Part shown: positions 6,930 to 7,070 of the stretch, piece by piece
Numbering within the stretch: position 1 is the stretch's first letter
How the letters are laid out: every line of letters starts with the position of its first letter
UHGV virus genome: UHGV-0139945
Strand: one strand, 5' to 3'
Source of the DNA: a virus
DNA: 26,445 nt
Translations under genes and position numbers: made by a program
The notes under the pieces: generated by a model
Told to the model about the DNA's origin: nothing
The model's database searches: none
The model's input: only the letters and a program-made list of their open reading frames with translations

Positions 6930-7070
6930 AGTCTCTCACCTCGCAGGGTTGCGGGTGTTAGTGTGATGGGTTCAGGCTTCAGGGCTACTCTGTTAAGTGG
7001 CAATGTCAAAGGTGAATCCCTGAGCCTGAAAGTGATGGCCACCACAGCAACGCTTAGCCGCAGTAAACCG

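Follow-up and report, generated by a model that had tools for sequence, protein, structure and literature searches.

A conserved stem-loop in the holin leaders of prophages of enteric bacteria

Background

Holin dosage sets the time of lysis, and hence the burst size. Control of lysis timing in phage lambda has been attributed to the dual start of the holin together with a small hairpin, sdi. Hairpins of another kind, those of RNase III, are present in the lambda N leader and in the T7 leaders and are irregular, with strand-specific bulges. The tisB standby site, which Romilly, Deindl and Wagner reportedly described in 2019, is said to combine a single-stranded stretch with a 5' structure element. 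Daniels et al. 1988, listed among the references of PMC7547250, reportedly found sites in the lambda late transcript that RNase III processes. Non-coding RNAs are also found directly upstream of the holin-endolysin operon of lambdoid prophages, these being the Pas sRNAs, PasA and PasC (bioRxiv 10.64898/2026.05.13.724894).

The DNA analysed here, referred to as the window, is the whole 26,445 nucleotides of the UHGV virus genome UHGV-0139945. Between its methyltransferase and holin genes is a hairpin, here termed class A, that can be compared with each of these systems. Like the lambda S sdi stem-loop, it is a predicted cis RNA hairpin in the leader of a dual-start holin of the lambda S type; that it affects translation initiation is a proposal made here. 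Unlike sdi, it is a separate and larger structure, 41-51 nt upstream and clear of the Shine-Dalgarno (SD) sequence and the start codons. There is no sequence similarity between class A and the lambda leader, and the covariance model described below finds nothing in lambda. The irregular stem, the strand-specific bulge and the location between cistrons, ahead of an initiation region, are features shared with the phage RNase III hairpins of the lambda N leader, of the T7 R1.1 type and, by the reported account of Daniels et al., of the lambda late transcript. Class A differs from these in having just 13 contiguous bp and a 33-nt loop. The succession of a predicted stable 5' hairpin, an unstructured stretch and a structured ribosome-binding site (RBS) is like that of the tisB standby site, a likeness in architecture only and not a homology. 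As a G+C-rich stem that follows or replaces terminators in the region from Q to the lysis genes, class A also resembles intrinsic terminators, including the tandem terminators of the lambda late leader, yet it has no U-run and its loop is about five times too long. Likewise, it is immediately upstream of the holin-endolysin operon, as are PasA, PasC and the short pR' RNAs of the StxS/IsrK type. The Pas sRNAs, however, are terminator-ended and are found in Stx-like prophages, and the PasC-bearing phage 2B8 has no class A hairpin.

Results

The hairpin and its setting in the window

The genes around the hairpin are all on the minus strand. The features of the locus, read along that strand, are:

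9380-8664, minus strand: Q antiterminator gene (Pfam PF06323)
8571-8552, minus strand: intrinsic terminator closing a short RNA from a pR'-like promoter
8467-8273, minus strand: 64-codon ORF
8123-7071, minus strand: N6/N4 DNA methyltransferase (MTase) gene (Pfam PF01555, E 3e-40)
7070-6930, minus strand: MTase-holin intergenic region, 141 nt
7037-7069, minus strand: upstream hairpin H1, GGUU.ACUGCGGC / GCUGUGGU GGCC (fold, partition function)
6971-7030, minus strand: class A leader hairpin (fold, covariance model, covariation, partition function)
6958-6970, minus strand: C/A-rich, G-poor spacer CCCAUCACACUAA, predicted to be mostly single-stranded
6933-6957, minus strand: sdi-type SD-sequestering hairpin, CACCCGC-AACC-CUGCGAGGUG (fold)
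6929-6576, minus strand: lambda S family holin gene (Pfam PF05106, E 1e-25)
6573-6031, minus strand: GH108 endolysin gene

The two flanking genes are those named in the preliminary description, a PF01555 MTase and a PF05106 holin, both on the minus strand. The holin has the dual-start motif Met1-Lys2-Met3, with AUG codons at 6929 and 6923.

The inverted repeat that was first noticed at 6971-7030 is present, with TTCAGGCTTCAGGG at 6971-6984 and CCCTGAGCCTGAA at 7018-7030 on the plus strand. In the RNA of the minus strand, a 5' arm, UUCAGGCUCAGGG (7030-7018), faces a 3' arm, CCCUGAAGCCUGAA (6984-6971), and the one-nucleotide bulge and 33-nt loop that had been described are both recovered: there are 13 bp and a single bulged A, at 6979 or 6978, in the 3' arm. 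The loop (7017-6985, 33 nt) starts with AUUCACC and finishes with GUAG. A repeat finder returned only the exact 8-bp outer part of the stem, because it allows no bulge. RNA folding, which had been suggested as a check, gave a minimum free energy (MFE) of -22.8 kcal/mol and z = -3.80, with none of 200 dinucleotide shuffles being as stable. The same raw folding energy is reached by 8% of all 72-nt windows in the 26-kb sequence, and on its own the hairpin is only modestly unusual, not exceptional. The case for it therefore rests on conservation and covariation in relatives. In the partition function it is robust, with 12.7 expected bp, and it scores 70.7 bits (E 2e-19) with covariance model R1. 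The lowest-energy 72-nt folds of the window are elsewhere, at 17485-17562 (plus), 4984-5067 (minus) and 18160-18243 (minus), with -34 to -36 kcal/mol.

Three further features of the window were seen in the course of this work. Just downstream of Q, at 8545-8663 on the minus strand, are a pR'-like promoter (TTGCAA..17..CATATT) and a short terminator-ended leader RNA, the counterpart of lambda 6S, StxS or IsrK; the only Rfam matches to this RNA are sub-threshold, to istR, RNAI and RsmY. The intergenic region between the 64-codon ORF and the MTase gene has a strong U-less hairpin at 8190-8260 on the minus strand (GGCUGGUGGGUG-UUGU-AGCACCC.GGCCAGCC; region z -3.75), with a Chi site within one arm. 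The Chi octamer, GCTGGTGG, has 20 copies in the 26.4 kb window, 15 on the minus strand and 5 on the plus strand, against an expectation from dinucleotide shuffles of 0.70 +/- 0.88 (maximum 3). Copies at 3412-3419, 5998-6005, 6867-6874 and 8238-8245 are examples, all minus. This enrichment in Chi is very strong, and strand-biased, for a prophage.

Occurrence and position in related loci

Related loci were gathered by MTase protein (152 loci) and by holin protein (80 loci). A covariance model (CM) was built from 18 diverse copies of the hairpin and then run on all of the gathered loci. Significant CM matches were found in 24 out of 99 sources (the window and L001-L099), in 12 out of 58 (L100-L157) and in 46 out of 79 holin-based loci. 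Conservation, which the preliminary description had named as a check, is seen in about 80 related loci with CM matches, from at least 12 named genera of Enterobacterales. The named hosts are Klebsiella, Citrobacter, Enterobacter, Kluyvera, Kosakonia, Mangrovibacter, Phytobacter, Pseudocitrobacter, Salmonella, Escherichia, Mixta and Erwinia, the Escherichia copy being degenerate and Rac-like. Named phages with the hairpin are Gifsy-2, HK225, mEp237 and phiNP, and it is also found in many Klebsiella prophages. By CM, the class A hairpin is absent from lambda, phage 2B8, VT2-Sakai and the K-12 prophages DLP12 and Qin, so that RNase maps of E. coli K-12 do not bear on it. The window is identical in the hairpin region to IMG/VR contig L004, and a Klebsiella spallanzanii prophage (L086) is 95% identical to it there. 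Citrobacter phage phiNP has the same Q-orf-dam-hairpin-holin order as the window; both arms are identical between the two, with the loop diverged to about half identity. Across about 1.2 Mb of related loci, all of the significant CM matches are in holin leaders, intact or split. Judged by these matches, the window hairpin is one copy of an unannotated RNA stem-loop found in many prophages of enteric bacteria.

The CM matches are on the holin-sense strand in all holin-based loci, as are the strong matches (at least 40 bits) elsewhere. The class A element is 54-65 nt long in relatives, and the distance from the end of its stem to the holin AUG is 41-51 nt, being 41 nt in the window and 71 nt in one locus (L097). 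Class A hairpins are located ahead of three unrelated holin types (lambda-S MKM..., 933W MYRM(E/D)K... and 'MSDPISG', the last of which has its own SD hairpin, CCCCUCA..UGAGGGGG) and behind many different upstream genes, so the initial view of the repeat as an element of an MTase-to-lysis junction does not stand. Where tRNA genes or other ORFs come after the MTase, the hairpin is further down, beside the holin (L016, L017, L020, L104, L115 and L119). Many MTase loci go from the terminator straight to the SD hairpin, with the class A hairpin missing, and among the MTase-based loci there is no hairpin right after the MTase in most of those in viral contigs and in many of those in genomes. This distribution indicates that the hairpin travels with the lysis cassette, the MTase not being an obligatory partner.

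Some holin leaders are without a class A hairpin, such as the L041-type leaders (terminator, spacer, SD hairpin) and that of the functional Gifsy-2 holin, and the hairpin is therefore not essential. Other modules are found in the same position, these being class B, class C (cloverleaf-like, with a GGGCUCAUAACCC arm) and class D. Taking the 24 distinct holin-anchored leaders that fold into separate upstream and SD domains, 19 have a class A, B or C hairpin domain of 49-61 nt that ends 39-49 nt before the AUG. In lambda, a terminator-like hairpin is followed at the equivalent place by an irregular hairpin, GAACAAAUC..GGAUUUGUUC, that is unrelated.

Rearranged and tRNA-associated forms of the region were also observed. 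In Gifsy-2 (L241, NC_010393; 2490-2660 and 4560-4660) the gtgA virulence-gene block separates the leader from the functional holin. On the cut-off piece are the terminator, the class A hairpin, the spacer, an SD hairpin and the first ~14 holin codons (annotated as STM1024); of the leader, the functional holin retains just another copy of the SD hairpin. A decayed copy of the hairpin is present upstream of the MTase block in L099 (1600-1720). From these two cases the leader appears to be a preferred insertion or recombination junction for morons. The MTase stop codon is inside a tRNA-Thr gene in many relatives (L011-L025, ~3541-3616). A 55-nt cloverleaf-like module with the tRNA-Met-like GGGCUCAUAACCC arm, not called by ARAGORN, is found in L168, L172 and L205 (~1440-1500), and in K-12 DLP12 (L243, 4290-4340) there is a related GCUGAUAACCCAAUACC segment upstream of essD.

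Conservation of the pairing

Covariation was assessed on a model-guided alignment of 50 distinct sequences. Standard pairs are present in 88% of cells across the 50 sequences, and in 20-49% once the 3' partners have been shifted by 1-3 columns. Changes on both sides are seen in 6 of the 13 pairs (33 cells), and the observed covariation score was reached by none of 500 shuffles. Because the sequences are related and had been aligned by fitting to the model, the arms were also inspected directly. There are 34 distinct arm pairs of 10-14 bp each, nearly all of which have one unpaired base or a small asymmetric loop in the 3' arm, and compensated changes include CAGGG/CCCUG, CCGGG/CCCGG, CACGGG/CCCGUG and GGCA../..UGCC. 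The lower stem, UCAGGC/GCCUGA, is invariant among the CM matches, which is partly a matter of ascertainment because the model was built on sequences with UCAGGC/GCCUGA.

In the class B leaders (L158, L163, L173, L180 and L207), the U-run, spacer and SD hairpin align with those of the leader of the HK225/Gifsy-2 type, as does the loop in its 3' half (GUGCUUUGUYG.UAAAUCCA). The class B stem is wholly different, GUGCCGCCAG/CUGGCGGCA as against UUUCAGGCUCACGGG/CCCGUGAAGCCUGA, and folds as predicted. This exchange of a whole stem is the strongest single evidence for selection on the structure. The hairpin keeps 10.4-12.9 expected bp in the partition function of every full-length leader tested. Taken together, the comparisons show a stem-loop that is under selection, with its orientation and position fixed relative to the holin start and independent of the gene upstream. 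The RNA-level role suggested in the preliminary description is well supported by the compensatory changes in relatives.

The choice of strand from G.U versus A.C combinations in the stem gave a mixed result, the sense strand being better for about 11 arm types and the antisense strand for about 9. It is the fixed orientation, together with the G.U pairs of the neighbouring hairpin H1, that leads to the reading of the class A hairpin as a feature of the late mRNA.

The remainder of the leader

Folding of 7080-6920 gives three separate hairpins, H1, class A and the SD-burying hairpin. H1 begins 1-2 nt past the MTase stop codon, has many G.U pairs and lacks a U-run. Its RNAalifold consensus, from 13 MTase-linked leaders, contains many U.G/G.U pairs and exchanges of GC for AU, and this G.U-rich pairing is possible only on the coding strand. 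A hairpin is present 5-12 nt upstream of the class A stem in all 53 of the distinct loci. At about half of the loci it is followed by a U-run and is a true intrinsic terminator; in the rest, including the window, it is the U-less H1.

Downstream of the class A hairpin, the spacer has the consensus ..UUUCAAnCACACAGC(A/G)CC in relatives. It is unpaired in the MFE folds, and its mean unpaired probability in the partition function is just 0.33-0.62 because another helix, P0, competes. The sdi-type hairpin follows, and the SD of the window holin, GAGGUG at 6942-6937, is inside it. This hairpin is found in all of the S-type leaders, with the compensatory variants CACCCCG..CGGAGGUG and CCAUCCG..CGGAGGUG.

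P0 is a potential long-range helix between GUUGCUGUGGUGG in the 3' strand of H1 and CCAUCACACUAAC downstream of the class A hairpin, pairing at 12 of 13 positions. The H1 3' strand segment GCUGUGGUGG, which is conserved in MTase-linked loci, is also complementary to the conserved spacer. Matched variants of P0 are found in L071 (GGAUGUGG:CCACAUCC) and L109 (GUGUGGUGG:CCACCACAC), and the means for duplexes of U-segment and spacer are -16.0 kcal/mol for cognate and -12.8 kcal/mol for non-cognate pairs. In the partition functions of 14 leaders, H1 is dominant in 5-6, including the window, and P0 is dominant in 7, which makes them nearly isoenergetic. RNAalifold selects H1 over P0. The P0 pairing, as modelled, should be seen as a lead only.

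Other identities considered

The preliminary description held that no U-tract follows the hairpin and that it is not a simple terminator, and both points are confirmed. The next bases on the coding strand are CCCAUCACAC, and an intrinsic terminator was rejected on the basis of these, of the 33-nt loop, against some 3-8 nt in such terminators, and of the lack of a call in the terminator scan. The bases after the stem in relatives are AAUCCCUUUC, AUCUCUUUC and the like. A search of Rfam 15 (including AgvB, AsxR, IsrK and STnc100) over 6966-7036 gave no match at E<=10, and there was no match at E<=1 over the hairpin in Gifsy-2, HK225 and L002. The hairpin is not a Pas sRNA, since 2B8 and VT2-Sakai are without it and the Pas RNAs finish at the upstream terminator. 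A dispersed repeat of the REP, ERIC or MITE kind was rejected because there is a single copy in the window even with 2 mismatches, and a MITE with target duplication because the flanking CCATCAC is confined to this window. A tRNA-like element was likewise rejected, ARAGORN giving 0 tRNAs in the window.

A 39-codon ORF with a GTG start (7045-6926, minus) crosses the hairpin and ends in a TGA that shares bases with the holin ATG (AUGA). A small ORF or leader peptide was nevertheless rejected, as the frame is not conserved and the element lengths of 54-65 nt ignore frame. Stops in all three frames are present in 14 of the 53 hairpin variants, and the substitutions in the hairpin are compensatory, not synonymous. 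Nor is the class A hairpin itself of the lambda sdi type, because it ends 41 nt before the AUG and a separate hairpin covers the SD. The pyrimidine-rich start of the loop (AAUCAYC) was considered as an anti-SD. Duplexes between the loop and the holin translation initiation region (TIR) were no better than those of shuffled loops (mean z -0.44; 2 of 42 below -1.64), and pairing of the loop with the holin SD is therefore unsupported. A sigma-70 or sigma-E promoter in the loop was rejected, since the TTGACA in the window loop has no -10 and is not conserved. RNAalifold on all of the matches gave no upper helix in the loop that is common across subtypes.

Discussion

The hairpin most likely shapes translation or cutting of the lysis mRNA, and the original suggestion of processing or translational control seems a reasonable one. 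The reading preferred here, tentatively, is of a hairpin that would serve the holin initiation region in cis as a boundary or standby element. The stem-loop is read as part of the late (Q-dependent) mRNA, and it takes the central place in a 5' leader that is conserved among lambdoid lysis cassettes. The order of this leader is a terminator or U-less hairpin, the 54-65-nt hairpin, ~15-20 nt of C/A-rich single strand, the sdi-type hairpin and then the dual-start holin. Acting in cis, the hairpin would be a stable structural boundary ~45 nt upstream of the holin AUG, keeping the spacer single-stranded and the folding of the sdi hairpin constant whatever gene has recombined upstream. Together with the single-stranded spacer, it would provide a ribosome standby platform for the structured holin RBS, which would stabilise holin dosage and the timing of lysis. 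An endonuclease specific for double strands or for single strands may cut the hairpin as well.

It is the anatomy of the leader that points to a boundary or standby function. The hairpin is robust in every context (10.4-12.9 expected bp) and unrelated hairpins substitute for it at the same place, both of which fit a boundary. The MFE layout of hairpin, unpaired spacer and SD hairpin would suit a standby site; in the ensemble, the unpaired probability for the spacer is only 0.33-0.62. That the distance to the AUG is constant may simply follow from descent of the spacer and sdi module from a common ancestor, with no requirement for spacing, and the invariant UCAGGC/GCCUGA lower stem is not predicted by a purely generic role that any hairpin could fill.

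A processing or stability site is a close rival of the boundary or standby hairpin and is a distinct possibility. RNase III would cut the hairpin, which an upper helix in the loop, or P0, might lengthen, or RNase E would cut the U-rich linker with the hairpin capping the new 5' end; either would separate the lysis mRNA from upstream sequence and set its stability and translatability. The 13-bp stem with a single bulge conserved in position and on one strand is consistent with this, as is the U-rich single strand UUUUUCAUUU that adjoins the stem in terminator-type loci. In other phages the same junction has tRNA genes or a cloverleaf-like tRNA fragment, which are processing signals. A 13-bp stem with a 33-nt loop is, however, short for a classical RNase III substrate. 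Set against the ~20 bp of double-stranded RNA taken as the criterion for RNase III, 13 bp and the bulge are certain. The extra 5-7 bp, stacked on the 3' arm (for example CUUCUUU/AAAAGAG), would bring the total to ~20 bp but are predicted for several subtypes only, in an upper helix that cannot be aligned across subtypes and that RNAalifold does not find. P0 could contribute 8-13 bp more, but is confined to MTase-linked loci. P0 is also the basis for the suggestion of a hinge in a conformational switch, in which GCUGUGGUGG would pair either with the sequence after the MTase stop (H1) or with the spacer (P0), and ribosomes terminating on the upstream gene would alter the accessibility of the holin leader. 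The more stable cognate duplexes, the matched variants in L071, L109 and the window (GUUGCUGUGGUGG:CCAUCACACUAAC) and the near-equal energies of H1 and P0 in the partition function are what would be expected of such a switch. It is nonetheless quite unlikely, as RNAalifold picks H1, long-range MFE predictions are unreliable, terminator-type loci have the spacer but no U-segment, and all of the segments are CAC/GUG-rich, so that some complementarity is expected. Equally improbable is the elaboration of this into a riboregulator of lysis timing, with GCUGUGGUGG toggling between H1 and a P0 that encloses the hairpin, where translation of the upstream late gene or an RNase III cut of the ~25-bp composite helix would gate access to the holin start.

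Rho reportedly silences prophage genes, a finding said to be that of Cardinale et al. in 2008. The hairpin could similarly belong to a silencing device of the prophage state, in which it would act with the hairpin upstream and with the spacer, rich in C, poor in G and a potential site for Rho loading, to help stop or inactivate lysis-gene transcripts that are without Q modification, such as read-through from moron promoters. Another hairpin always precedes it, being a true terminator at about half of the loci, G is nearly absent from the extremely C/A-rich spacer, and, with the holin SD sequestered, an untranslated leader RNA would be exposed. Such a device is unlikely, since the lack of a U-run and the 33-nt loop mean that the hairpin is no intrinsic terminator, a spacer of ~20 nt is short for a rut site and, with no MTase-holin terminator in the window, the arrangement is unlike an insulator against upstream transcription. 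The conservation might instead be at the level of DNA, with a palindromic protein-binding site or a conserved recombination linker between phage modules and no function as RNA. There is no variation in the outer half-sites, TTCAGGC/GCCTGAA, pairing of the stem is about as good on one strand as on the other, and the leader is demonstrably a recombination or insertion junction, as the split by gtgA in Gifsy-2 and the decayed copy in L099 illustrate. The inner stem and the class B exchange, though, keep complementarity and not sequence, a dimer operator is not expected to have a variable 33-bp spacer and an asymmetric bulge, the hairpin keeps one orientation to the holin and the neighbouring H1 requires G.U pairs, which together make a DNA element very unlikely. 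The remaining alternative, a chance inverted repeat with no function, would draw on the 8% of 72-nt windows in the sequence that are equally stable. The presence of the hairpin at the same place in about 80 loci from many genera, with compensatory changes, leaves it a negligible probability, and the comparative data effectively refute it.

Conclusions

On the comparative evidence, class A is a new and well-supported structured-RNA family of a familiar general kind, and it is a candidate for a new Rfam family. The hairpin is also a practical marker for the starts of lysis cassettes and for the junctions at which morons are inserted. If it is only a processing site or an insulator, it would be a useful but unsurprising addition. 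A second, larger covarying element across the prophages of the Enterobacterales would make the lysis-gene leader more elaborate than has been described, and the hairpin would offer a defined and easily mutated target in relation to the constancy of lysis timing despite the shuffling of upstream genes.
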